Assembly: GCA_964016885.1 (NCBI GenBank)
Contig: CAXHJY010001428.1
Coordinates: forward strand, 1 to 44,199
Length of the DNA stretch: 44,199 bases
Origin: Eledone cirrhosa
Lineage: Eukaryota
Direction: 5' to 3'
Shown here: positions 1,001 through 44,199 of the stretch, piece by piece
How positions within the stretch are numbered: position 1 is the stretch's first letter
Layout: each line of letters begins with the position of its first letter
The notes under the pieces: model-generated
Database searches by the model: none
Told to the model about the DNA's origin: nothing
What the model saw: only the letters and a program-made list of their open reading frames with translations
Position numbers and translations under genes: made by a program

Positions 1001-2496
1001 CTTATAATTCATCTGATCTTTTAACCTCGTATGTTTCTTTTTAAATGTTTATTTTTCGCAAACGAATTTATCTGAGAGGTGGTGGTGGTAAATAAATAAA
1101 AAAAAAAAAGGTCTAATCTATATGAAAGTTTGGGTGCATTAGTTAGTCCTGTACTAGGATTGGGTTTTTATGTATTATTTTTATTTTTGATCGCTGCCTG
1201 CGAAAGATATTTTTCTAGCAATGTGCTGCTGCCGGCTTGTTTGTCTAAGAGTATTTTTTTCTTTTCTTTTGTTTTTTTTCGGTTAACCGTATTTCACGAA
1301 TTTATTCGATTAATTTTCTTTTAATTATATAAAATACGATGAAGCACACCACTTAATTAACCATAATTTTTTTCTTTTTTGTCGAAAATTTCTTAGGTTT
1401 CTACATTTTAAACATAGATTACGTTTCTGTAAAAAAAATTTTTTTTTTCTTTCAAAATTTCAAATTTTTAAATGTGTCATTTTTCCCCCCTGCATTAAAA
1501 TGTTTAAATATCGCAAATCATGATTCTGCATAAAAAGAAAACGAAAGAAATATCTACAAGATTTTAGGCACCCTTCCTTTTGTTTTTAGAGGTTTCTTCT
1601 ATTTAAAAAAAATCTTACAAAGTACCTCAGTTGTTAGTAGGCCTAGGTAATCTCTTTATACACACACACATACACAGTCCGTTTAAAGTACCTCTAACAT
1701 ATTCTTTCTTTATTTCAGGATATCATGATATGGAGATGAAGATAGTTCAGCATATGTATACATTTTTTAAGATGAAAGGAATTCTATATGAAGAGCGCAT
1801 GTAAACAGTCATGTTCATTAAATCCTGGATTAAATTAATAATCATCCTCTACATTTTAATGTCCATTCTTTCCACACTGCCATAGGTTTGTTAGGCTATG
1901 GCATACATCACCAATAATTTTTATCAGTTTTCAATACTTCTTTTAAAGCACAGCATTCTAAGGAGATCTGATATAGTCTCTTTCATACTTCTGGATAATT
2001 TTGTCTACTGATTAATATCTTTATATTTTACCATACACAATTAACTGGCTTCTGGACAAAACTTTTTATATAGAATCTACATTGATAAGTAGAAATATTT
2101 TAGTGATGTCTTTTTTACTTTCTAGTTTCTTATTACAAGGCAGAGTTCGGTCATAATAAGTCATTTTAGGATAATTATCTCAGAAATGATTGTATCCTAA
2201 TAAATCAAAGGAAAATATATTGTGTGATGAAAATATATTAAATAAAAGAAACTATAAAAATTGTTAAGATATTGATTTATATAATCAGATGCTAAAGAAA
2301 GACTTAATTGTATTTCACAATGTTTCACATTTCATTGTGAAGTCATCCACTGCTGGAAATAAATAATTCAACATAAATTAACTTAATTAACTTAACTGAA
2401 GATCATCATCATCATTTAACATCCGTTTTCCCTGCTAACTAGGGTTGGATGGTAAATACATTGTAATAGCAATTTTTATAGAAAACAACATTCACG

Positions 2497-3645
2497 ATGA
2501 GCAATTTGGTATCTCAACCCAAACGTGTTGCGACAGGAGACAATCGATATCACTGTGATATCTGTGGTCAAACATTCTCGCAGAGAAGAGTTTTAACAGC
2601 ACATAAATTCAATCATATGCGAGAAAATGCATCTCTCTGCGATATCTGTGGAAAGACTTTCTCTCGGAGAGGTAGCTTAACTCGACATAAACATATTCAT
2701 ACAGATGAAAAGACATATCACTGTGATATTTGTGGTAAATCATTCTCGCGAAAGTGTCACTTGTCTACACATAAATACATTCATGGAGGAGAGAAGCCAT
2801 ATCATTGTGATATTTGTGGTAAATCCTTCTCTGAAAGAAATAACTTAACTAAACATGTACTGATTCATACTGGAGAGAAACCATACCAATGTGATATATG
2901 TTTTAGATCATTCTCTCAGAAAAGTAACCTAAATACGCACAAATATATTCATAAAGAAAAGAAGCCATATCACTGTGATATCTGTGGTAAATCGTTCACT
3001 TGTGTTAGCCAAATAACCCATCACACACGTATTCATACTGGAGAGAAGCCATTTCAGTGTGATATATGTGACAAAGCATTTCCTCAAAGAAGTGGCTTAA
3101 CTAGACACAAACGGGTTCATACAGGTGAGAAGCCATTTCACTGTGATATATGTGATCGATCATTCTCTCAGAAAACTGCCCTAAATAGACATCAACTTAT
3201 TCATGCTGAAGAAGGGCCATTCCGTTGTGATATCTGTGGTAAATTCTTCGTTGATATGAACCAAGTAAACAAACACAAATGTGTTCATATTGAAGAGAAA
3301 CTGTATCAATGTGACATCTGTGATGAGTCATTCTCTCATAGAAACATCTTAGCTACACACATACGTATCCACACAGAAGAGATACCATATGAATGTGATA
3401 TATGTGGTGAATCATTCACTGAAATCAGTCCATTAATGAAACATGCACGTATTCATACTGAAGAGAGACCATATCATTGTGAAATATGTAATAAATCATT
3501 TTCTCAAAAATGTCACTTAGATACACACCAAGAAGTTCATGTGGGAGAGAAGTTTAATTGTGATACTTGTGGAAAAATATTTTCTCAAAAGGGTCAGTTA
3601 ACTAAACACAAAAAACTTCATATGGAAGAAAAGCTAGATAACTGA
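2497..3645 (+). CDS. Tandem C2H2 zinc-finger protein (ZNF-1), 382 aa, 13 fingers, no recognisable effector domain
   Basis: Intact ORF with 13 C-x2-C-x12-H-x3-H repeats and TGEKP-type linkers. Upstream acceptor TTCTTTATTTCAG ends at 1718. Confidence 0.93.
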
Positions 3646-12222: not shown

Positions 12223-14379
12223 TTATTTCTCCTTTTTGTGAATAAGTTTGTGACGATACAAAAAACTATTATAAGAAAATGTCTTACCACACTCATCACA
12301 GCGATATGGTTTACCTCCTGTGTGAGTACGTTTGTGGTTAGACAAACTACAGCTCATAGAGAATGTTTTACCACAGTGGTTTAGTTTCTCTCCTGTGTGA
12401 ATTCGTTTGTGGAAATATAAATCACTAGTTGCAGAAAATGATTTACCACAGATACCACAGTGGTAAGGGTTCCCGCCTGTATGAGAACGTTTGTGGTTAA
12501 TTAAGCTACACCTCATAGAAAATGTTTTACCACACACACCACAATGATATGGTTTCTCTTCTGTGTGAGTTTGTATGTGGTTAGATAAAGTAGAACTCAT
12601 AGAAAATGTTTTACCACAGATATCACAGTGTGGTTTCTTCCCTGTGTGAGTTCGTTTGTGAAAATACAAGCCACTAGCTGCAGAGAATGATTTACCACAG
12701 ATACAACAACGGTATGGTTTCTCTCCTGTGTGAGTATGTTTATGTATAGATAATCTACAGCTCCTATAAAATAGTTTACCACAGATATCACACTTGTGTG
12801 GTATCTCTCCTGCATGGATTCGTTTCTGGAAAGATGAACAACTTGCAGTGGAAAATGATTTAGCACAGAAGTTTTGTTTGTCTTTTTTATGTAAACGTTT
12901 GTGGTTAGACAGAGAGCTACTTCTAGAAAATGTTTTATTACAGATATTACAGGAATATGGTTTCTCTCCTGTGTGAGTACGTTTGTGGTAAGATAATCTA
13001 CAGTTCAAGGAAAATGTTTTACCACAGACATCACAGTGGTGTGGTTTCTCTCCTGTATGAATTTGCTTATGGTTATATAAATTACTATTGACAGAGAATG
13101 ATTTACCACAGATATCACAACAATATGGTTTCTCTTCTGTATGAGTTCGTTTGTGGTTTGACAAACTACAGCTCATGGAAAATGTTTTACCACAACTATC
13201 ACAGTGGTATGGTTTCTCCCCTGTGTGAGTTCGTTTATGGTTAGATAAAACACTTCTGACAGAGAATGATTTATCACACACATCACAGTGGTATGGTTTT
13301 TCTCCTGTGTGAATTCGTTTGTGGGTATGTAAATTACTGCTGACAGAGAATGATTTACCACAGGTATCACAATAGTATGGTTTCTCTCCTGTGTGAGTAC
13401 GTTTGTGGATACATAAAATACTACTAGTAGAGAATGATTTACCACAGATATCACAACAATGTTGTTTCTCTTCTTTGTGAGTACGTTTATGAAAAATTAA
13501 ACTACTGCTGGTAGAGAATGTTTCTCCACAGATGTCACAGGGATATGGTATATCTCCAGTATGAATACGTTTGTGACTATTTAAACAACTCCTGTAAGAG
13601 AATGATTTACCACAGACTTCACAATTGTAAGGTTTATCTTCTGTGTGACTATTTCTGTGATTATATAAAACATATTTCCTAGAGAATGCTTTACCACATA
13701 TGTCACATTGGTATGGCTTTTCTCCTGTGTGAATGCGTATATGGCGAGATAAATTAGCACTGATTGAGAATGTTTGATTGCAGATATTGCACTGGTATGT
13801 TGAGTTCTCCTCTGTATGAATACGTATGTGTCTATATAGATGACTAACTTCAGAAAACGTTTTGTCACAAATATCACATTGATACGGTCTCTCTCTAGTG
13901 TGTATACGTTTGTGCCGAGATAAATCACTTTTTCCAGTAAAACTTTTATCACAGATATCACAGTCATATGGTTTCTCCCCTGTATGTGTACGTTTATGTC
14001 GAGATAAATCACTATTTCCACTGTACCCTTTACCACAGATATCGCAGTGGTATGGTTTCTCCCCCGTGTGGATATATGTGTGTCTATGTAAACTATTTTC
14101 TTGTGAAAACAATCTACCACAAATATCACAATGGTATGGCTTCTCTCCTGTGTGAATAAGTTGGTGGCGTTGTAAAGAACCATTTCTGGTAAACTTTTTC
14201 CCACATTCTTTACACTGGAATGTCTTTAATCCAGAGTGAATTAATTTATCTTGCTTTAAATTATTTTTTGATGTGAAAATATCACAAGAGAGGGATTTAT
14301 TCTCAGCCTCTTCCTGTGTCTCCTGAGAAAAATCAATATTTTCTCCATGAAGCTGACTTTCAAATGATTCTTCTTCCAT
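12223..14379 (-). CDS. Tandem C2H2 zinc-finger protein (ZNF-2), 718 aa, about 22 canonical and 3 degenerate fingers, short acidic N-terminus
   Basis: Intact ORF with repeated YxCDICGKxFS..L..HKRxH-TGEKP units. Minus-strand acceptor CCCTTCTATTTCAG with its AG at 14911-14910. Confidence 0.95.
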   Translation of the reverse strand: MEEESFESQLHGENIDFSQETQEEAENKSLSCDIFTSKNNLKQDKLIHSGLKTFQCKECGKKFTRNGSLQRHQLIHTGEKPYHCDICGRLFSQENSLHRHTYIHTGEKPYHCDICGKGYSGNSDLSRHKRTHTGEKPYDCDICDKSFTGKSDLSRHKRIHTRERPYQCDICDKTFSEVSHLYRHIRIHTEENSTYQCNICNQTFSISANLSRHIRIHTGEKPYQCDICGKAFSRKYVLYNHRNSHTEDKPYNCEVCGKSFSYRSCLNSHKRIHTGDIPYPCDICGETFSTSSSLIFHKRTHKEEKQHCCDICGKSFSTSSILCIHKRTHTGEKPYYCDTCGKSFSVSSNLHTHKRIHTGEKPYHCDVCDKSFSVRSVLSNHKRTHTGEKPYHCDSCGKTFSMSCSLSNHKRTHTEEKPYCCDICGKSFSVNSNLYNHKQIHTGEKPHHCDVCGKTFSLNCRLSYHKRTHTGEKPYSCNICNKTFSRSSSLSNHKRLHKKDKQNFCAKSFSTASCSSFQKRIHAGEIPHKCDICGKLFYRSCRLSIHKHTHTGEKPYRCCICGKSFSAASGLYFHKRTHTGKKPHCDICGKTFSMSSTLSNHIQTHTEEKPYHCGVCGKTFSMRCSLINHKRSHTGGNPYHCGICGKSFSATSDLYFHKRIHTGEKLNHCGKTFSMSCSLSNHKRTHTGGKPYRCDECGKTFSYNSFLYRHKLIHKKEK

Positions 14380-15529
14380 TATGTTCTCTTTTAATCATAA
14401 AATACAAAAACAAATTTTGTTTCTTTATTCTTTGATCTTGTTTTAGCCATCAAGATTAAGGCCATGCTGGAGCACGTTTTCACAGAAATATTTCTAAAGC
14501 TATTTTTTCTTTAAAGTGGGTCTTTTTCCTTCAAAATCTGAAAATGTCTCTATTGAAATACGTCTACAATATGGTTTATTGTAGGACATAATTTTTGTAA
14601 TTCTTAAACTATGCTGTAAAAGATAACTAATATAATATCCCTGATCCCCCAAATACAATCTATCTGAAGTTATTTAGACAACTTTTCAAATTTAACTTGG
14701 ATACAAAATCATCCAGTCAGTATTCAATATAGCATTCAACTGTTTTTACAGTAAATTGTAATTCAGAGAAAATATTTCACTCTTTAACCAATGTACCACA
14801 AACAATGTCACATGTGTGTTCTATACATAAGTTGCCTGTAGTCATCCAAATATAAATTTCATAACATTACTTGAATATAAAATATTTTATCTCCGTGATT
14901 CCTGATATTCTGAAATAGAAGGGATATTATAAATGTTAACAATGTTAGTTGAGGCAAGAGATATTGAGGAAGAAAAATAACAGAGAAAAAACATATAAAG
15001 GTAGCCATTAAGTTTGTCAATGCAGTACAAAGTCTCCTCATATGACAATTTCTCTCATCTGATCCATATGGAATTCTTTCATTTTAAGAAGACATACCAC
15101 TGAATTTCATTATTCTCTGGCAATTCATCATCATTGTTTAACGTCTATCTTCCACGCTAGCATGGGTTAGACGGGAATTGTCCCATTTAAGTTAAGATTG
15201 GTCGGGTGACTGTGTCTCGCTCGTATAGGACTATCTGGCAGGTTTTCTTTTTCTTGTTTGTAATTGAGAAAGGTGAGCCCTGGTCAAGAATTTACTTTCC
15301 TATTTTCATTAATCATTATCAAACATAATTTAACTTTAAACATTTTTGTTTACTAATAAATCATTTGAAATTTACAAATTTACATACACAGATTACATTA
15401 CCCAAGATTCATGTGCATAGGTAAGGGTTGGCATGAAAACTAAATTGAAGATAACAAGTTTGGCTTTTTATGCCTACCTCACTTCTGATTACTGAATGTT
15501 GAGGATGGCACATTACTGCACCAGCTTTT

Positions 15530-21301: not shown

Positions 21302-22503
21302 TATAATCAAATATTACTACATTGGTTTAATAGACTGATATATATGATTGCTCATACATTAAGTAATGTTGTCATCATTGCCGATCTATTATAAATGTTG
21401 TTCTAACTGTGACCACCCCAGGAATTCTTCATCAATTTAATATCTGATATGCTTTTTCTTATTTTGTGTAATGAAATAGTGTGATTTGGTTGCTACTGGG
21501 AACAGCAATCAAATCTCCTTCTAATCACCCTACTGTTTTTAAAAAAGACAATCACGCTGGAAAAATGATGTGTCCCTATAAACATGTCTGAATAAAGATG
21601 ATGAACGCTGACTTGGGACTGAATTGCAACAACTAAGCATTAAAAAATGACATCTTTGGAGAAAAATGAATGTTATGCTACATTGTTCTGTGCCTTAATT
21701 ACAGTTCTCAATGTGAAGGTGTATCTATGATTTACAAATATAAAAACTTATCATTTATTAAAATGACACATGATGTCATTTTAATAACAAATTAAAAAGT
21801 GAAGTTCAATTGTTCAAAAGATTTATATCTACAGTTTAGTAGTATAAAAATATAGTAAAAGTTCTACTGTTAAATCTCTACATTTTAAGTATCATCACTT
21901 TCATATTCTATTTCTTTATTATTTCAGATTCTTTGATGACATTAGCATAAAATAATTCTTTCCTTCATATGCATCAAGATTTGCCATCTGTTAAAGATGT
22001 TACACAGAATAGATACAACCTTGTTTATATAAATCTGTAACTGAATTACTGTGAAATATTTACTGAGATTAGCATCAACATTTCTTTACTTCATTGTCTG
22101 GAATATGTACAAGATAATTTTACATCCTAATTCAACCTGGACAAATTTACCATGAAGATATAACCGATTTTTCTACAAGAAATTTCATGTGGATATGTTT
22201 TGAGAAATGGATCTATTTTGGTTCTAGAATTCTTGTTAGTTCTTATGAGTCAGGGTTGTATCATAAACAATCTTGGAATAACTATTCCAGGCACTATAAT
22301 GATATGATAAAATAATAATGAAAATTATTGTGTACAGTGCTCAAGTGTACTACAACAATAAATCATCATGTAATTGTGTGTAGCATCTTCAGATATTGAC
22401 AACAATCACAGTTTAGGAAAATATAGTTGAAGAAACATTTGTTATTTATATAAAAATAACAAGAAGAAAAATATCTATTTATTGTGGTGAACGAAGTAAA
22501 ATT

Positions 22504-23313
22504 ATGGAAAATGAATTATGTGAGAACCATAACTGTGATATCTGTAAAAAGTCAGTCTCTCAAAAAAGTGACCTAATTAGACATAAACGTATTCATACAG
22601 GAGAGAAACCCTATCAGTGTGATACTTGTGGTAAATCATTCTCTAGAAGTGGTTACTTAACTACTCACATACGTGTTCATACAGGAGAGAAACCATATCC
22701 CTGTGATATCTGTGGTAAATCATTCTCTCAAAGGGGTGAATTGACTACTCACAAACGTATACATACAGGAGACACGCCATATCACTGTGATATCTGTGGT
22801 AAATCATTCTCACAGAATGGAGACTTAACTACCCACATACGTACTCATACTGGGGAGAAACCATATAACTGTGATATTTGTGGTAAATCATTCTCTAGAA
22901 GTGGTTATGTAACAACTCACAGACGTATACATACGGGAGAAAAGCCATATCACTGTGATATCTGTGATAAATCGTTCTCTCAAAGTGGGGACTTAACTAT
23001 ACACAAACGCATTCATACAGGGGAGAAGCCATATCACTGTGAGATCTGTGGTAAATCATTCGCTAGAAGTGGTGACGTAACTACTCACAAACGTATTCAT
23101 ACAGGAGATAGGCCTTATCAGTGCAATATCTGTGGTAAATGTTTCTCTGAGAAAAGTACCTTAACAAAACATAAACGCATTCATACAGGAGAGAATCCAT
23201 ACCATTGTAATAACTGTGGGAAATCATTTTCTCAAACAAGTCACTTAACTAGACACAACCGTATTCATCATGCAGTCAATAAGCCAAATCATTCACTCAA
23301 AGTAGTGTATTAA
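22504..23313 (+). CDS. Tandem C2H2 zinc-finger protein (ZNF-3), 269 aa, 9 highly homogeneous fingers
   Basis: Intact ORF with 9 canonical fingers. Acceptor TTTATTATTTCAG ends at 21927; donor GTAAGT at 20640. Confidence 0.93.
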   Translation: MENELCENHNCDICKKSVSQKSDLIRHKRIHTGEKPYQCDTCGKSFSRSGYLTTHIRVHTGEKPYPCDICGKSFSQRGELTTHKRIHTGDTPYHCDICGKSFSQNGDLTTHIRTHTGEKPYNCDICGKSFSRSGYVTTHRRIHTGEKPYHCDICDKSFSQSGDLTIHKRIHTGEKPYHCEICGKSFARSGDVTTHKRIHTGDRPYQCNICGKCFSEKSTLTKHKRIHTGENPYHCNNCGKSFSQTSHLTRHNRIHHAVNKPNHSLKVVY

Positions 23314-23899: not shown

Positions 23900-24160
23900 T
23901 GGTCGTGGAGGTGCCACGGCAAAAAAGCACCCAGCCCACACTGTAAAGTGGACGTGTAGGCGCTACGAAAAAGTACCCAGCACTCATTGTAAATGAGGTT
24001 GGTGTTAGGAAGGGCATCCAGCTGTAGAAATCAAGCCAAATCAGTTCCTGTATGAGCAAGGCATGGTCAGCCGACCAGACAGTGCCCACAACAGGACAAC
24101 CCGTCTAACCCATGCTAACGTGGAAGAACGGACGTAAAACGGTGATGATGATGATGATGA
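23900..24160 (+). mobile_element. SINE-like repeat with (GAT)n tail; relatives at about 2402-2452, 4582-4690, 6075-6330, 8300-8500, 15126-15175, 18690-18805, 19390-19560, 25825-25980, 29480-29540, 36880-37030 and 38810-38900
   Basis: Shared core GGTTGGTGTTAGGAAGGGCATCCAGCTGTAGAAA and tail CCGTCTAACCCATGCTA..GTGGAA..CGGACGT..GATGATGAT. Confidence 0.8.
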
Positions 24161-25113: not shown

Positions 25114-26469
25114 ATATATATATATTATATACACACTTGTGTATAATATATACCACTAACCTAATTGCTCCCCCTTACTCCACCATTGCCTTCTCAGCCA
25201 GGCCTAGGACAACACAATGAATGCCTTAGTAATAGTGTTAGTGCCACAATAAAATGAACTCAGTCCACCCTGTCTGGTGGTAATGCTAGTGTCATGATAA
25301 AGAGCATCCAGTCCATCCTGTCAGATGGTACTGCAAGTGCCACAATAAAAAGCACCTGGTACATGCCAATGAAGTAGCTGACATTAGGAAGGGCATCTAG
25401 CTGTAGAATGAAATATATAAGCAAGATACAGTCATCTGACCTGTCATAACCTTCAACCTTTATTTGTATGAGATGGAATGGTCTGTGTTGCAACATATCA
25501 CCATCTTGCCTTGCTCTTGTTTCAACTGTGAGGCCCATAATCCTAGAATATGAAATCATCACACTTTGGTCTATGTAAATATATTGTAATAAAGAAGTTA
25601 ATATTCAGCATAAAGTGTCTGAACTTCTCTTGTGGATTGGTAGTATCGTTAGAGAGTCAGGCGCCATGCCTTGCGGCATAGAGTTACTGCCCTTTGCGTT
25701 CTGGGTTCAAATCCCACCGAGGTTAACTTTGCTTTTCATCCTTACAGAGTTGATAAAATAAGCACCAGTAATGCACTGGGGTAATTGCTGGCCTTGTGCC
25801 AAAAGTAGAAACAATTATTTTCTTACACCCACTTTCCATGTTAGTATGGGTTAGACAGGTCAGAGAACCATACCTTGTTCATATGTTCCATTTTAGCATG
25901 ATTTCTATGACTGGATGCCCTTTTTAATACCAACCACTTAGCAGATCATACTTGGTTCATTTTATCATGGCACCATCACCAAAGAGCTTGTCATGTACTC
26001 AGCAAGACGGAAGAACCTGTTCTATCCTATATTGTTTCCATTCAATCGCCAACCATTTTACAAAGTGTACTGAGTACTGTTTATCTTGGCACCAACACTG
26101 GAAAAGTTATCAAATCCTTGACAGGACTAAAGGGTCCCTTCTATCGTATGTTGCCTCAATTTATTCATTCACTACTGAGTGCATTCGATCTTATGAAATT
26201 AAATTTTGGTGGTATTAATCTAGAATTGTATGTGGAAAAAATACCAATTACTTCCATTCTGGGTGTAGATAGAAATATATACTTAGACACATGCATGGTT
26301 CTGGGTTCATTGTGCATCACCTTGGGCAGGTGTTTTCTACTATAGTCTTGGTTTGACCAATGTCTTATAAGTTGAATTTGGTAGACAGATCGTGTGGGGA
26401 AGGCCGTCGTATATTTATATATATATATATATAGACCGCCTTACCTAAATACATAGTAAAACCTACTAC

Positions 26470-26818
26470 AGCCAGTAGGCATCTCTAACAAAATACACCC
26501 CGTCCCACCCACACCACCCCGTTCTATGTAAAGTTATGTTGGTGCCGCGCCATCCGGGCCGAAACAAATGAGATCGTGTAGGTGTCACGACAAAAAAACA
26601 CACAGTCCACGCTGTAATGTGGCCGTGTAGGCAACACGGTAAAAACCTCCCAGACCCACACTGTAAATGTGGTTGGTGTTAGGAAGGGCATCCAACTGTA
26701 GAAAACCTGCCAGACAGTCCTATGCGAGCAAGACAATCACTCTTGCCTCAAGTGGGACTACCCCCGTCCAAACCCATGCAAACGTGGAACACGGACGTTA
26801 AACGTTGATGATGATGAT
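26470..26818 (+). mobile_element. Composite (GAT)n-tailed repeat, same subfamily as 39960-40547
   Basis: Near-identical blocks CAGTAGGCATCTCTA..GCCGAAACAAATGAGATCGTGTAGGTGTCACGAC..GACAGTCCTATGCGAGCAAGA..CGTGGAACACGGACG. Confidence 0.85.
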
Positions 26819-26852
26819 ATATAGTTATATAATAAACAACATTAGGCAATTA

Positions 26853-26913
26853 TTTCATTTACCAGTGGTTTCTTAAAAGCAAAAAAATTTTGCTTTCAAT
26901 CATCAGAATGAAA
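26853..26913 (-). ncRNA. Identical hammerhead ribozyme copy on the minus strand (left arm of the palindrome)
   Basis: Mirror image of 26991-27051 by the palindrome symmetry. Confidence 0.8.
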
Positions 26914-26990
26914 AAATCCTGGCGTATTTATTGATGTTGGATTTTAAAAACCCTTTTTAAAATCCAACATCAATAAATACGCCAGGATTT

Positions 26991-27051
26991 TTTCATTCTG
27001 ATGATTGAAAGCAAAATTTTTTTGCTTTTAAGAAACCACTGGTAAATGAAA
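26991..27051 (+). ncRNA. Type I hammerhead ribozyme with minimal stem III (Penelope-like type)
   Basis: UUUCAUU-CUGAUGA-[UUGAAAGCAAAA.UUU.UUUUGCUUUUAA]-GAA-ACC.ACU.GGU-A-AAUGAAA: 7-bp stem I, 12-bp stem II, short near-palindromic stem III, predicted cleavage after A27044. Confidence 0.8.
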
Positions 27052-27141
27052 TAATTGCCTAATGTTGTTTATTATATAACTATTAAGCTCTGTTACCTAC
27101 ATAGAGCACTCTTTTTTCCTGGACTTTTCCGACGGAATTAC

Positions 27142-27768
27142 TTCATTCATACATATATATATATATATATCACTCGCAACAACACAGCACGCCATTTTTT
27201 CATTCATATATAATTTTTCCCCTCGCTGTGGTTTGTCTTTTTTCTATCACCTTACTGCTATCCTCTTTCTCTCTCCCCCTTCTCTCTCCTTGTACCTCTT
27301 GCTTTCATTCACCCCCTCTGCTGGTCACACACTCTCTCGGTTGGCCTCTTCCTCACACTTTCACTCGCTCACTCTCTGCTTCTCCCCCTCTCTCACTTCC
27401 TCTCGTCTGACCTGTGTGAAATCCTTTTCTCTCTCACTTTTTGCGTGGTTCAGACGTGTCTTCCTCTTCTCGTCGATTGATTTGTTCGGACTTCAGTCCA
27501 CAAGTATCATTGACTTGTCTCTCTTTTCCTCTCTTTACGTTGCATTACTACTGTTGTTTGTTTACTGTCCTTCTTTCCCCATCCAATTCGCCCTGTCCCA
27601 ATAACTTATTTTAGTTATTGCTCGCACTGATTTTGAGGTATCTGGTCTTAATGCAAAGAAATACCAATGATAGTCAGCAGATCACTGATGATGGACAGTC
27701 CTGTTTCTCGGTCTATTTTCATTCATATATATCACACTCGCAACAACGCAGCACGTCATTTTTTCATT

Positions 27769-28991: not shown

Positions 28992-30134
28992 AAAATCAAA
29001 AACTGAATGCAAAAGAAAATGTTTAAAAGTGTTCTTTTCATTTATAACATATTCATGTTGTGTATTTCTTTACTGCACAATCACCGCGTGATAAACATGT
29101 ATTTGTTACATCGCACTCATCGTGGTGCTGATTAAAATCGCATAGCATAGTGGTCGTAATTCAGTGAGTTCGATTCCTTGACCGGATGAGCCATTGTAAT
29201 GCTTTTTTAAACGTCATATGTATGTCCAATATAAGACTAAGATGTTTTAGTCTAGAATTGAGCTGTATCTGTAGAGTCTGACAACTAATGTTTGTACCAA
29301 GTTAAGTAATCTTACTCACATCTATTATGGTGTATATTGTATTACGAAAATTATATAACTCCACAACAGTAAGACTTATGTTATACCTGGGTATTACCGA
29401 CGTTATCCAGGCGAGGCACCATAAAAATAGTGAGTTTGGGAGGACAGTAATGCTGATTAAGTAAGGAATAGGTCTATGATGGCCCATCCAACCCATGCCA
29501 TCATTGGAAAAGTGGACGTTGAATGATGATGTTGATGTCTAATTATTAAGTAACAATATCAAAAGCCAAATATAATATTAACACAACAACATACGTGTGT
29601 ATTTTTGTTTTCTTGGATCAGATGGAATATATAATAATCTTAGAATGTTCTGATGAGCTTGAAATTGTAATCAGGAATCTGAAGATCTTCAATCCAAGAT
29701 CCACATCCATAGTTATCATCATCCATTTCCATTATAACTCTATACCAGAGTGTCTTCTATATAATATGTTCTGACACTTTCTTGCTATTCCAACTTTCAA
29801 TAAAAGTGAACAAATATTTCCTCTCCAATAATCTTTGTTATCATTTCATTGGTTCTTATGTCTTATATTGTATTTTTTTAATTTCAGGTTCTCATATGAC
29901 ATTGAAATAATCATACCTAATTGAAGATGATAAACATAATTATAAACTAAAAATAACTTCACCTTTAGTGTCAGCTTATTTATACAACTATTGGTTGAAT
30001 GTTTGAAACATTTTCTTGGAGTTGAGATTATTTTCAAAATTCCTACACAAATGTTTGGTACAACATCAGACTTATCTTACAGCCAAAACATCATCTGATT
30101 TTATACAGGGAAATATAGATTAGACAAGAAAACT

Positions 30135-31304
30135 ATGGATGAGAGAGCACAGTCTGAAAATATTGACTCATCTACTCACACACAGGAAAATACAGAAATG
30201 AAATCACACCCATGTAATATCTGTGAGACGTTTTTCACAAAAGAGGATTTAATTCAACATAAATTAATTAATTCAGACACCAAGCTGTACCACTGTGAAG
30301 TTTGTGATAAAACAATCACTACAAATAGTTTACCTTGCCATAAATGTAGTCACACAGAAATAAAACTACACCACTGTGATATTTGTGGTGAACACTTTTC
30401 CACAAGTGACAGTTTATCTTCCCACAAATGTATTCACAAGCGAAAAAAATCACATAACTGTGATATCTGTGGTAAAACATTTCCTAGAAGTTGTGATTTG
30501 TCTTCCCACAAAGTTACCCACACAGGAGAAAGAGCATATCACTGTACTATCTGTGGGGAAAGGTTCACTAGAAATAGTTCTTTAACTCGCCACAAACTTA
30601 TTCACACGGGAGAAAGACCATTCAGCTGTGACATTTGTGGTCAAACATTTTCTAGAAGTTCGGATATGTCTACCCACAAACTTATTCATACAGGAGAGAA
30701 ACCATATCACTGTGTTATCTGTGGGAAAAGTTTCTCTCAACATGGCAATTTATCTTCACACAAGCGGTTGCATACTGGGGAGAAACCATACCAATGTGAT
30801 ATCTGCAATGAATCATTTTCTAGAAGTGGTTATTTGACTTCTCACAAACGTATTCATTCAGGAGACAACCCACACCAGTGTAATATCTGTGGTGAAGCAT
30901 TTCTTGAAAACAGTGCCTTATATACCCACAAACTTACCCACACAGTGGATAACCTATATGAATGTAATATATGTGGTAAGAAATTCACTAGAAATAGTTC
31001 ATTGACTCGTCACCAACATATTCACACGGGAAGAAAGAAATATAACTGTAACATTTGTGGTAAAGCATTTTCTAGAAGTACTGATATGTCTATTCATATC
31101 CGCATTCATACAGGAGAGAAACCATACCACTGTGATATCTGTGATAAAAGTTTCTCTCAAAAAGGTAATTTATCTTTACACAAACAAATCCATGTTGGAG
31201 ATAAACCATACCAATGTGATATCTGCGATGCAACATTTTCTAAAAGGGGTCATTTGTATTCTCACATAAATATTCACACAAGAGAAAAATCATTGGCAGT
31301 GTGA
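30135..31304 (+). CDS. Tandem C2H2 zinc-finger protein (ZNF-4), 389 aa, about 12 fingers plus 1 degenerate; N-terminus homologous to ZNF-2
   Basis: Intact ORF. Acceptor TTTTTTAATTTCAG ends at 29887; donor GTAAGT at 28563. Confidence 0.93.
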   Translation: MDERAQSENIDSSTHTQENTEMKSHPCNICETFFTKEDLIQHKLINSDTKLYHCEVCDKTITTNSLPCHKCSHTEIKLHHCDICGEHFSTSDSLSSHKCIHKRKKSHNCDICGKTFPRSCDLSSHKVTHTGERAYHCTICGERFTRNSSLTRHKLIHTGERPFSCDICGQTFSRSSDMSTHKLIHTGEKPYHCVICGKSFSQHGNLSSHKRLHTGEKPYQCDICNESFSRSGYLTSHKRIHSGDNPHQCNICGEAFLENSALYTHKLTHTVDNLYECNICGKKFTRNSSLTRHQHIHTGRKKYNCNICGKAFSRSTDMSIHIRIHTGEKPYHCDICDKSFSQKGNLSLHKQIHVGDKPYQCDICDATFSKRGHLYSHINIHTREKSLAV

Positions 31305-33625: not shown

Positions 33626-35970
33626 CGACAGTCTAATTCACCACTACTCCTGAAACGGTCATTAGTGTTACTGCTGAGGAACCTTTAGGTGACTCTGATC
33701 ATGCTATGATCATTGCCAATCTATCCCTCATGGGCAGTAACAAGAACCACAACCATCTCCAAACTGCTCACTTTGACTGGAATAAAGCAGACTGGAACTG
33801 TTACTGCACCGAGTTGCAACGGCCAAACTGGCTTGAGTTCTATGACTCTGGAGATGTCAACACTGTACTCCAGAACATCCTGAGCTCAATATGGACAGCA
33901 TGTGCAGCATCAGTGCCACGTAAGCGGAAAAAACATCCCAAAAGCGCAATTTGGGAGACTGCAGCAGTCCGTCTTGCCAGATATGAACGGCGCAATGCTG
34001 AACGTGAGTACAAACTTCACAAATCAGACATTAATAGGAAGAGGCGAAATAGATCATCCAACCACCTCAAACAGGTGACAAAAAAGGCAGTGCTTCAATT
34101 TGAGCAGCGCATAGCAACCAGCCCTGACAGTAAGGTGTTCTGGAAGTATGTTCACTAAAAGCAGAGGCCTCACTCTCCAGTTTGGTGATGCAAATTCTAA
34201 GTGTGGTTACTGACGACCCCAAGGAATGCGCAGAGCTCATTGCTGAATGCTATGCAGGCATTTTCACTATTGAAGACCAGAGTGTATCATCTCCACCACC
34301 TATGACACCGGACTCTATTACAACCATGGAATTTACACCTGCAATGCTGCGACGTCACCTAAAAAATAAACGCAACCATGCCTCTCCTGGTCTTGATGGT
34401 GTTACGTACCTGCTTCTTAAACGTGGTGGGTACTTCCTTCTATACCAGTTATCACGCTTCTTCCAATTCTGTCTGAACAACAGTGCTACTCCAGAACAGT
34501 GGAAAACTGCCAGTGTCATTCCTCTGTTCAAAAAGGGTGACCGCATATCACCTGTGAACTATCGTCCAGTCAGTCTTACTAGTTGCATTGCCAAACTGAT
34601 GGAATTCTGTGTCAGAGAAACACTTTGGAACTTCTGGAGCTCTCACAGTCTTATCCGGCCCTCGCAATTTGGATTTATCCCCAACTCCAGCTGCTGTGAT
34701 CAACTTATAGAGTTTCTTGAGGACATCACCCGGATCACTGCTGGCGGCTCATGGGTGGATGTTGTTTACTTTGACTTTGCGAAGGACTTCAATTCTGTGC
34801 CACACAAAAGGCTTATGGAAAAACTCTCTGCAATGGGTGTGAAGGATGATCTTTTTAACTGGTTGAAGTTCTTCATTCTCAGTCGAAGAGAGGTAGTCAC
34901 GGTTCTGGGACAGCATTCCTCACCATATGAGATGTCATCTGGCGTACCACAGGGACCTGTTCTTGGCCCCCTTTTGTTTGTGGCATATATTAATGACATA
35001 GATGCCAACTTAAGGAATGCCACAGTACTAAAGTACGAAGACGACATCAAGCTGTACCTTGAGATAAAAAGGACAGATCCTGAACACTATAGATCTTGCT
35101 TCCAGTCTGACCTGGACACAATGCAACAATGGATCTCAGACTGGCAACTCAAGCTAGCTGTGGACAAGTACACCACCATGCATTTTGGGAGTAAAAACCC
35201 AGCGTCCACATACTCCCTCCACAGCACTAATATCAAGAAGTCTTCCTGTGAACGTGACCTGGGCATTACGGTCAGCAACGATTTGCGTTGGACGAGGCAC
35301 GTCTCTAAAATTGTCAAGAGGGCCGAGGGTGTCTTAGCATCACTCAGCAAGACCTTTGTCAGCCGCTCTCCAGATATCTATTTAAGGCTGTATACAGCTA
35401 TGGTGCGACCACACTTAGAATTTGCATCACCAGTCTGGAACCCCTATCTTGCTCAGGACATTGACCGCCTGGAAACTGTTCAGAGACGTGCAACCAAGCG
35501 AATACCCTCCATCAGGCATCTACCATACTCTGAGCGCCTTGCTTCCCTGGGCATGGATTCATTGAAGCTCCGACGCCTGGCAACTGACTTGGTAAACACC
35601 CACAAAATTGTTAACCATGTTGCCAACAACAACCCTGAGTACCTTTTTGATTTCCATGTGTCTCACACACGTGGACATGCCCACAAAGTAAGAAAACAGC
35701 ACAGTTCCCATGACTTTCGGAAACATTTTTTCACGCTCAGAGTTGCTGAAGCATGGAACAAACTACCTGCATCAGTTGTTAGCTGTCGAGACACTGCATC
35801 CTTTAAGGCCTCCATGCTTCCCGAGATCCGCCAACACTACAGCTAACACATACACACATGTACCTCCCTGACATTTGTGTATTATTCTATGTACTATACA
35901 TACACCTTTGACGTGTTGTAGTGCACCTGAGCACTTTACACAATAATTTCATTATTATTATTATTATTAT
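33626..35970 (+). mobile_element. 5'-truncated CR1-clade LINE; ORF2 pseudogene (end of APE endonuclease plus RT) with 3' UTR and (ATT)n tail
   Basis: PLGDSDH endonuclease end (about 33682-33702). Stop at 34156-34158 and a frame change. RT motifs PLFKKGDR..NYRPVSLTS, GVPQGPVLGPLLF, YEDD, ERDLGI, VRPHLEFASPVWNP, TRGH and WNKLP in 34182-35846. Confidence 0.92.
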
Positions 35971-39124: not shown

Positions 39125-39176
<52 letters not shown>

Positions 39177-39907
39177 TGTATATGTATATATATGTATATA
39201 TATATATATACATATATGTATTGTATATGCATATATTATATATATATATATATATATACATATACATATCTGTATATGTATATATATGTATATATATATA
39301 TATACATATATGTATATGTATATGCATATATATATATATATACATATATGTATATGTATATATATATATATACATATATGTATATATATGTATATATATA
39401 TACATATATTTATAATATATATATATAAACTATCTGTATATATATATATACATATATGTATATATATATATACATATATGTATATATATATATACATATA
39501 TGTATATATATATATACAATATATGTATATATATATACATATATGTATATATATATATATATACATATATGTATATATATATATATACATATCTGTATAT
39601 ATATATATATACATATATTATATATATATATATACATATATGTATAATATATATCATATACTATATGTATATATATATATATTACATATTGTATATTATA
39701 TATATATACATATCTGTATATATATATATACATATATGTATATATATATATATATACATATATGTATATATATATATATACATATATGTATATATATATA
39801 TACATATATGTATATATATATATACATATATGTATATATATATATACATATACGTAGTATATATATATACATATATGTATATGTATATATACATATATAT
39901 ATATACA

Positions 39908-39953
<46 letters not shown>

Positions 39954-39959
39954 TATTTA

Positions 39960-40580
39960 CAGTCAGTAGGCATCTCTATCAAAACACACCCCCGTCCCAC
40001 CACCTCCACCCCATCCACACCGCCCCTTTCAATGGAAAGTTATGTTGGTCCCACAACATCCAGGCCGAAACAAATGAGATCGTGTAGGTGTCACGACAAA
40101 AAAACACAGCCCACGCTGTAAATGTGGCCGTGTGGGCAACACGGTAAAAACCTCCCAGCCCACACTGTAAATGTGGTTGGTGTTAGGCAGGGGCATCCAT
40201 CTGTAGAAAACCCGCCAGACACGGTCCACGCTGTAATTGTGGCCGTGTAGGCAACACGGTAAAAACCTCCCAGCCCCACACTGTAAATGTGGTTGGTGTT
40301 AGGCAGGGCATCCAGCTGTAGAAACCCGCCAGACGGTCCACGCTGTAATGTGGCCGTGTAGGCAACACGGTAAAAACCTCCCAGCCCCACACTGTAAATG
40401 TGGTTGGTGTTAGGAAGGGCATCCAACTGTAGAAAACCCACCAGACAGTCCTATGCGAGCAAGATAACCACTCTTGCCTCAAGTGGGAAAACCCCGTCCA
40501 AACCCATGCAAGCGTGGAACACGGACGCTAAACCTGATGATGATGATATATATACATATATATATATATACATCATATAT

Positions 40581-40616
<36 letters not shown>

Positions 40617-40946
40617 CTATATACATATATACATTTGTATATATACATATATATATACATATATATATATACATATATAGATACATATATACATATATAT
40701 ATACATATATACATATATATACATATATAATACATATATACATATATACATATATATATACATATGTACCATATATACACACTGTAAATGTGGTTGGTGT
40801 TAGGCAGGGCATCCAACTGTAGAAAACCCCGCCAGGACAGTCCTATGCGAGCAAGACAACCACTCTTGCCTCACGTGGGAAAACCTCCCGTCCAAACACA
40901 TGCAAGCATGGAACACGGGACGTTAAAACGATGATGATGATGGTGA
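39960..40946 (+). mobile_element. (GAT)n-tailed composite repeat with an internal unit of about 120 bp present three times (about 40110-40445), plus a further 3' copy (about 40777-40946)
   Basis: CCACGCTGTAA(A)TGTGGCCGTGT.GGCAACACGGTAAAAACCTCCCAGCCC.ACACTGTAAATGTGGTTGGTGTTAGG..GGGCATCCA.CTGTAGAAA occurs three times. Confidence 0.85.
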
Positions 40947-40975
40947 TATATATATATACATTTATATATATATAC

Positions 40976-41072
<97 letters not shown>

Positions 41073-41087
41073 AATATATAAATATAG

Positions 41088-41141
<54 letters not shown>

Positions 41142-41150
41142 TAACATATA

Positions 41151-41186
<36 letters not shown>

Positions 41187-41220
41187 ATAACATATATATA
41201 TTATATATATATATATATAT

Positions 41221-41324
<104 letters not shown>

Positions 41325-41382
41325 CTATACATATATTTATATATATATATATACATATATATATAGTATATATACTATATAT

Positions 41383-41473
<91 letters not shown>

Positions 41474-41541
41474 GTATATATACACTATATAATATATATA
41501 TATATATATATATACATATAATATATATACATATATATATA

Positions 41542-41574
<33 letters not shown>

Positions 41575-41620
41575 ATATTATATATATACATATATATATA
41601 ATAATTATATATATATATAC

Positions 41621-41651
<31 letters not shown>

Positions 41652-41681
41652 CATATATATATATACATATATATATATAAT

Positions 41682-42140
<459 letters not shown>

Positions 42141-42183
42141 GTATCTATATATATGTATATATATATATATATGTATATATATG

Positions 42184-42220
<37 letters not shown>

Positions 42221-42221
42221 G

Positions 42222-42525
<304 letters not shown>

Positions 42526-42530
42526 TATAC

Positions 42531-42579
<49 letters not shown>

Positions 42580-42598
42580 TATACATATATATATATAC

Positions 42599-42629
<31 letters not shown>

Positions 42630-42630
42630 C

Positions 42631-42742
<112 letters not shown>

Positions 42743-42746
42743 GTAC

Positions 42747-42820
<74 letters not shown>

Positions 42821-42824
42821 GTAC

Positions 42825-42934
<110 letters not shown>

Positions 42935-42938
42935 CTAT

Positions 42939-43140
42939 CTAAGGCGGGTAAAATTCCCGAGATCCATCGACGAGTTCTCTCCAGCGGTCTCTGTCCCTCA
43001 TTATCGCTGCCATATCCTGCATCTCCAACAGACCGGTGTCTGTCTTTAGGGCATCAACATATGTTAACCTTGGTCTTCCTCTTCTAGTGTGTCCATGTAG
43101 GGGCTCCCAAAGGAGCACTGAGTGCAATGTCAACTCTGGA
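42939..43140 (-). mobile_element. 3' end of an RTE-like LINE embedded in the TA satellite
   Basis: [49 protein letters not shown] is an RGRP / DR..WR C-terminus, followed directly by (TA)n. Confidence 0.8.
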
Positions 43141-43148
43141 TGTATATA

Positions 43149-43201
<53 letters not shown>

Positions 43202-43256
43202 ATTTATATATATGTATATATATGTATATCTGTATATTTATATATGTATATATATG

Positions 43257-43289
<33 letters not shown>

Positions 43290-43308
43290 GTATATATATG
43301 TATATATG

Positions 43309-43353
<45 letters not shown>

Positions 43354-43372
43354 GTATATATATGTATATATG

Positions 43373-43421
<49 letters not shown>

Positions 43422-43424
43422 ATA

Positions 43425-43756
<332 letters not shown>

Positions 43757-43777
43757 CATATATATACATATATATAC

Positions 43778-44012
<235 letters not shown>

Positions 44013-44015
44013 TAC

Positions 44016-44138
<123 letters not shown>

Positions 44139-44156
44139 CATATATATATACATGTT

Positions 44157-44188
<32 letters not shown>

Positions 44189-44199
44189 TATATACATGT

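Follow-up and report, generated by a model that had tools for sequence, protein, structure and literature searches.

A hammerhead-bearing palindrome in the Eledone cirrhosa genome is probably a head-to-head pair of Penelope-like element ends left by target-primed reverse transcription

The window analysed here is the whole 44,199-nt stretch of Eledone cirrhosa contig CAXHJY010001428.1. It contains four ORFs encoding C2H2 zinc-finger arrays, at 2482–3645 (+), 12223–14394 (−), 22417–23313 (+) and 30099–31304 (+). A LINE-type reverse transcriptase (RT) frame in two pieces (33637–35846, +) was recognized by eye, and very long (AT)n arrays lie at 39128–39956 and 40946–44194, one exceeding 3 kb at the contig end. 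A very high-copy repeat ending in (GAT)n, which we take to be SINE-like, occupies 26441–26819, with other copies at about 23900–24150 and 39915–40942. The structure under study, a stub of a Penelope-like element (PLE), sits in the TA run at the end of this repeat, between the third and fourth zinc-finger ORFs as a sequence-only reading had stated. A pyrimidine-rich stretch at approximately 27190–27600 could be the fourth zinc-finger ORF's promoter or first exon.

The sequence-only reading had described a 263-bp palindrome with 130-bp arms and a 3-nt loop, and this description was borne out. The arms (26821–26950 and 26954–27083) are exact reverse complements with 130 of 130 positions paired around a CCC loop, and pairing falls to background outside both of them. 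A window-wide repeat search was dominated by (TA)n; among stems of at least 14 bp outside AT-rich repeats (GC >15%), the only one besides the palindrome was a single 14-bp hairpin. Both arms, the left on the minus strand and the right on the plus strand, correspond to positions 1–130 of the same PLE pseudo-LTR end. On the right side only, the element continues for a further ~64 nt of unpaired tail (27084 to ~27147, +), which was overlooked in the earlier reading and which runs on into the ORF leader in full elements; the left arm is tail-less. The junction at 26951–26953 reads GGG on the minus strand, i.e. one element-native G plus two extra G residues before the tail-less arm, at what proved to be a family-wide 5' hot spot. 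The target is represented by a short TA run at the left boundary (26817–26823), which comes after the (GAT)n end of the high-copy repeat, and by (TA)n at the right boundary (27153–27170).

Each arm contains an outward-pointing type I hammerhead motif, so that one is present on either strand. The plus-strand motif (26991–27051) consists of a 7-bp stem I (26991–26997/27045–27051), CTGATGA at 26998, a 12-bp stem II, GAAA at 27032, a near-palindromic stem III, ACCACTGGT (ACC-ACT-GGT), and a GUA site. Its mirror image lies at 26853–26913 on the minus strand, with a predicted cut at 26860. A descriptor scan of the window returned two matches only, one per arm, which agrees with the earlier description of the same outward-oriented hammerhead, with these stems, on both strands; the cut predicted after A27044 coincides with the position given by the re-derived motif. 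The arm motif has the conserved core, the three helices and, in GUA, a site that follows the NUH rule for hammerhead cleavage (PMC4191386). Rfam scans, a check proposed with the sequence-only reading, returned no hammerhead match, just generic hairpin and miRNA matches that were all under gathering scores.

The arm is a dispersed repeat in its own 3.0-Gb genome. A search with it gave 1,253 candidates and, among the best 40 scored, many were 97–98% identical. Two words taken from the arm had 2,170 and 5,441 exact genome matches, and the reversed controls had 0. In these copies the unit extends beyond the arm on both sides, with a microsatellite-rich region upstream and the ~64-nt tail downstream. 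One of ten loci that were extended (L037) carries a broken RT and GIY-YIG frame beside an inverted arm 97% identical to that of the window. A query with this RT fragment yielded 29,426 candidates, and all of the best 150 scored had at least 90% identity. The genome search for a Penelope parent that the sequence-only reading had called for thus recovered one with RT and GIY-YIG motifs, and its proposal of a Penelope-type origin was upheld by arm homologues flanking intact RT/GIY-YIG ORFs. At 20 intact-ORF loci, selected for long frames, arm homologues were present in all 20. A sense copy of the arm lies 220–236 nt before the ATG in 13 of the 20, and a copy lies 1.8–2.3 kb after the stop codon in 19, in the manner of a pseudo-LTR, and the hammerhead motif of the family lies within this pseudo-LTR. 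As these homologues are mostly 86–89% identical to the arm of the window, the intact-ORF loci represent a sister subfamily rather than the direct source.

The parent element has a single ORF of ~710 aa. In three of three ORFs inspected for motifs, we found YRDD at 350 and YVG at 598, together with RWK at 41, DKT at 118, CxCX5C at 559, and CxxC..E and CxH (662 and 693). The RWK, DKT, CxCX5C and CxxC/CxH set is diagnostic of the Hydra clade according to the accessible part of PMC8557442. DKG was absent from the three ORFs, and CCHH was judged absent by eye, as the interval from VVY to YVG is free of Cys. The insertion flanks of the family show a preference for (TA)n, as in the Hydra clade. Pfam searches of the intact ORFs found neither the RT nor the GIY-YIG family, and PDB sequences gave nothing relevant to the intact ORF; the family was assigned from the motifs and from a resemblance to published Hydra proteins judged by eye. 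A homologue search with an intact ORF found 1,339 proteins at E ≤ 1e-20 among 8,000 scored, and nearly all of the 120 listed were unnamed. From these motifs we conclude that the arm flanks intact ORFs with RT, GIY-YIG and Hydra-clade signatures. In one pseudo-LTR (L049:1301–1325), ~35 nt ahead of the arm, there is a strong polypyrimidine tract that terminates in CAG, possibly the 3' splice site of a retained intron.

Head-to-head arrangement of the arm is a habit of the whole family. Counted by eye on chromosome 1, pairs within 300 bp numbered 12 among the first 100 of the 2,170 matches and 15 among the first 100 of the 5,441. We assembled 30 short fold-backs from 80 loci, of which 60 were taken in position order and 20 were fetched as such pairs; two of the fold-backs look duplicate. 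The tail was present on exactly one arm in 29 of the 30, as it is in the window, and at least one arm started within −7 to +2 of the position of the window's centre in 18 of the 30. Inverted pairs with a one-sided tail thus recur across the genome. Forty genomic sites match the junction type of the window exactly, and 13 sites match an overlapped form. With homopolymer and loop columns set aside, no substitution separates the two arms in 11 of 39 fold-backs. The idea that the structure is singular or special does not survive these counts; the palindrome is an unremarkable remnant, without genes, of a PLE family present in very many copies. The earlier suggestion of a very young insertion is plausible, yet three minority letters are common to both arms, and two of these co-occur at one other site only. 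Gene conversion between arms was not demonstrated, with 0.22 shared rare variants per locus against 0.05 (P=0.11). Other hammerhead motifs with a canonical G10.1-C11.1 pair were seen at L051:309 and L056:2412–2576, and the presence of another head-to-head pair at the latter locus suggests that further PLE families may make the same stubs. A second very abundant PLE family with an ORF of ~785 aa (L116–L125; 57,881 first-look candidates) is likely young, as many copies are identical. The descriptor found no hammerhead in 10 of 10 loci of this second family, which therefore gives no cross-family support.

Many copies of the element have the same start position, at which extra G is present. The element has one native G ahead of the T run of the arm, and copies starting there usually carry a second. 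By eye, an extra GG was present at 30 of the 40 window-type junctions and at 38 of 68 distinct (TA)n junctions. Solo mini-copies (L209, L216, L221, L228 and others), ~130 bp long and embedded in (TA)n, also start with GG at the position of the window's centre. After six chance matches and one untruncated copy had been dropped from the 26 inspected, 15 of the remaining 19 solo copies had the extra GG, and 14 of these 15 were without the tail. At other positions, which provide few controls, the extra GG was found in 0 of 10 as-matched sites and in 0 of the 26 assessable among 38. The hot spot was present as well in a subfamily that lacks a perfect TTTTAAAA palindrome. In fold-backs the extra GG occurred on the tailed arm, on the tail-less arm or on both (both in 3 of 15 junctions), which allows either of the two primings to have come first. 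Untemplated G residues in L1 and SVA insertions have been ascribed to copying of the cap (PMC3287187), and the PLE promoter has been located in the pseudo-LTR (PMC2377424), as far as the accessible text of these papers goes. The fixed start with extra G is likely to be the capped start of the element's RNA.

Intact elements contain a second hammerhead. It lies 330–520 nt after the ORF stop codon in 19 of the 20 intact-ORF loci, with G at the cut position (e.g. L042:4238–4297); its core is intact in 17 of the 19 and changed in two. A word specific for this variant had 702 exact matches, and 29 of the 30 inspected were internal. As hammerheads do not cleave GUG sites according to the accessible text of PMC4191386, the internal site is expected to be uncleavable. 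Selection on the internal core was looked for and found no statistical support, as lineage changes fell in the core in 0 of 12 cases (P=0.19), and stem III has drifted in the intact subfamily (predicted duplex stability of −7.0 versus −8.2 kcal/mol). The internal copy is most simply explained as a silenced self-insertion of the 3' end of the element. It is improbable that it acts as a built-in partner, such that one RNA unit would dimerize and only the terminal site would be cut.

Folding predictions were carried out for the arm hammerhead in several contexts. As an isolated 61-mer its predicted fold is essentially that of a hammerhead, with a stem III pair probability of ~0.5. The predicted stem I probability was ~0.17 in the whole arm and 0.01 once the tail was added. 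The full palindrome folded at −198 kcal/mol, compared to −11.7 kcal/mol for the ribozyme. The sequence-only reading had proposed a switch between self-cleavage and dsRNA; these values speak against it, as the antisense arm would be transcribed first on either strand and the hairpin would be favoured by ~185 kcal/mol. Read-through RNA of either strand is predicted to bury the hammerhead in a 130-bp hairpin. Recurrent subfamily changes were mostly confined to N7, loop II and pair-compatible stem positions; none of the 12 variable columns with recurrent change fell among the 11 core positions, which is suggestive only (P=0.089). Covariation did not exceed that of shuffles: 98.3% of cells were paired, 304 of 500 shuffles scored as high and no pair had changed on both sides. 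The motif is probably the ordinary pseudo-LTR ribozyme of this PLE family, and its activity is predicted to depend on dimerization and perhaps also on the protein encoded by the element. A cleavage footprint in insertions was also sought and rejected: among 38 distinct (TA)n junctions at element positions 81–93, counted by eye, 13 fell at 81–85, 12 at 87–89 and 13 at 90–93, with no pile-up at the predicted cut. This absence is consistent with the use of uncut RNA as template in vitro (PMC11167929).

The most likely explanation for the palindrome is that it consists of two hammerhead-bearing pseudo-LTR ends of a PLE, one of which has the tail, joined head to head within a TA repeat, and that it is a dead-end by-product of target-primed reverse transcription (probability about 0.9). 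In vitro, a lizard PLE protein extended both strands of the target and began synthesis at two sites inside the RNA, which define the tail; the protein is predicted to be dimeric (accessible part of PMC11167929). By analogy, the RT/endonuclease of the element would cut a (TA)n target, and cDNA synthesis would begin at two internal RNA sites, position ~130 and position ~194 (the tail). Initiation so close to the 5' end of the RNA would lead to run-off after 130–195 nt and to addition of C, likely opposite the cap. The two cDNAs, primed on opposite target strands, would then be joined at their 3' ends, which we consider somewhat favoured as the joining step. The arms in the window would be such run-off cDNAs, one per start site, with the GGG at 26953–26951 preceding the tail-less arm; we infer this from the G added at the cap in L1 and SVA, the promoter in the pseudo-LTR and the two-site start of the lizard enzyme. 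The more specific proposal that the palindrome is centred on the capped 5' end of the element's RNA, with one cDNA reaching this end from the tail site and one from the tail-less site before head-to-head joining, is put forward tentatively, at rather less than even odds.

The joining step could have taken another course. The sequence-only reading had pointed to the AAAAA-CCC-TTTTT centre as a possible primer for fold-back; plain snap-back of this kind does not account for the 64-nt tail on one arm only or for the C/G run that is repeatedly found added on to a constant 5' end. A modified version, in which the cDNA folds at the TTTTAAAA palindrome to template its own extension and one arm is subsequently cut back to the tail boundary by the endonuclease, was weighed within the PLE explanation and for the joining step only. 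The overlapped junction of the 13 sites is what self-priming at TTTTAAAA would produce, short microhomology is found at the centre of other fold-backs, and self-priming has been proposed for rotifer PLE palindromes in the accessible part of PMC3846280. However, the centre in the window is non-overlapping and its CCC is unable to pair with the adjoining A run, the GG start point is shared by solo copies and by the subfamily without the perfect palindrome, and some junctions have GG on both arms. Moreover, five fold-backs (L067, L068, L076, L197 and L200) carry the tail on the arm whose 5' end is shorter, and simple copying could not have provided that tail. Self-priming is thus the less probable course for the window, although it fits the overlapped junctions and remains a fair rival for the joining step.

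Explanations outside PLE integration fared worse. Perfect palindromes are a known class of assembly artefact, and this one lies on a 44-kb unplaced contig. Nevertheless, a 63-nt contig spanning the loop (26921–26983) with 0 differences was recovered in three of three short-read contig runs, at depths of 9.2, 12 and 10.6, which match the single-copy level indicated by unique flanks in two of these runs (9.6 and 13.2). The three runs derive from one sample, possibly that of the assembly itself, and a RAD-seq run had no coverage of the loop. The earlier reading had asked for reads across the loop; the short-read contigs supply the unchanged junction, so we conclude that the palindrome is not an assembly artefact, and a long-read fold-back, which is not expected in short-read contigs, is unlikely here. 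The sequences past the two arms also differ, the left/right asymmetry coincides with the tail boundary of the family, and similar junctions occur on chromosome-scale contigs, leaving a fold-back from assembly or polishing hardly credible. Co-option of the locus as a regulatory RNA switch, or as a source of dsRNA for ADAR or Dicer, on behalf of the neighbouring zinc-finger genes draws on its position between ORFs 22417–23313 and 30099–31304 and on the perfect 130-bp duplex that read-through RNA would form. It is very unlikely, as many equivalent structures lie at unrelated genomic sites and the hairpin is predicted to dominate on either strand, with no second state. An equally slim chance attaches to a MITE-like or retrozyme-like unit, in which the entire palindrome would propagate itself: 40 sites do share a junction type, but the junction letters vary by site, the arms come from different subfamilies, the centres vary widely, the tail occurs on one side only and the arms are parts of units that carry an RT. 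MITEs and TIR elements have symmetric TIRs and a uniform interior, whereas here we found a one-sided tail, variable centres and attached RT ORFs. The matches listed for the arm words were dispersed or inverted, and no head-to-tail hammerhead array of the retrozyme type was present at the locus. A DNA-transposon TIR reading, prompted by widely spaced inverted pairs, was dropped once the 4-kb spacer had been identified as the microsatellite 3' region of the PLE itself and the ORF loci had come to light.

As one among many similar leftovers, the single locus is of little weight. The family, in contrast, constitutes a large natural data set on the way in which inverted ends and one-sided tails arise in PLEs. 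If the tentative reading of the centre as a twice-copied capped RNA end is correct, the stubs would be a genomic record of PLE integration, the transcription start of a PLE would be fixed from DNA alone, and two-site priming would explain inverted pseudo-LTRs and one-sided tails. The family also implies that many near-perfect hairpins of up to 130 bp may exist across the genome as potential dsRNA substrates. The open literature, as distinct from Repbase and most subscription papers, yielded no description of this PLE family, no G-marked 5' hot spot in PLEs and no internal GUG hammerhead. The family is absent from the Hydra table in the supplement of PMC8557442, and the kind of by-product is already known.

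The following comparisons refer to the accessible parts of the cited papers. The closest known system is the Hydra clade of PLEs with a C-terminal endonuclease (Craig et al. 2021, PMC8557442), and the nearest listed family is Hydra-1_Obim, the N-terminal protein sequence of which is visibly similar by eye. Our family has in common with this clade the RWK and DKT motifs, the CxCX5C linker, CxxC and CxH around a conserved E and N, the lack of CCHH, (TA)n targets and a hammerhead near the 3' end with a near-palindromic stem III. Hydra hammerheads tabulated in the supplement of PMC8557442 have the same overall architecture, and the published octopus one has acca-a-tggt as stem III, compared to acca-c-tggt here. 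Stem II of the listed Hydra motifs is 3–7 bp, whereas ours is 12 bp and AU-rich, and the other stems differ too. The unit is also longer (~4.2–4.8 kb, with a ~2-kb microsatellite 3' region) than published Hydra elements, which are generally <3 kb, and it has a second internal hammerhead and clear pseudo-LTRs, whereas Hydra-1_Obim is listed as 'no pLTR'.

An inverted 5'-truncated copy with a one-sided tail is the published layout of PLE insertions (PMC8557442, PMC3846280 and PMC2377424), and the head-to-head copies, the tail at one end and the AT-rich target of this standard unit are all found here. However, the copies described here are cut to ~130 bp without an ORF, the tail is ~64 nt rather than 30–40, and the 5' ends cluster at a single position, where extra G is found. 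Metazoan PLE hammerheads (Cervera and de la Pena 2014, PMC4209133) are likewise of type I, with a long helix II and a short palindromic helix III, for which dimerization is predicted to be required; the G10.1-C11.1 pair is missing from our motif, which has U-A instead. In Schistosoma, hammerhead pairs on opposite strands lie 100–700 bp apart (PMC4209133). The recently described non-LTR retrozymes (bioRxiv 10.64898/2026.07.22.740005) resemble the stub in being non-coding, PLE-derived and equipped with a type I hammerhead, but they form head-to-tail tandem arrays, whereas the structure in the window is a dispersed head-to-head stub.
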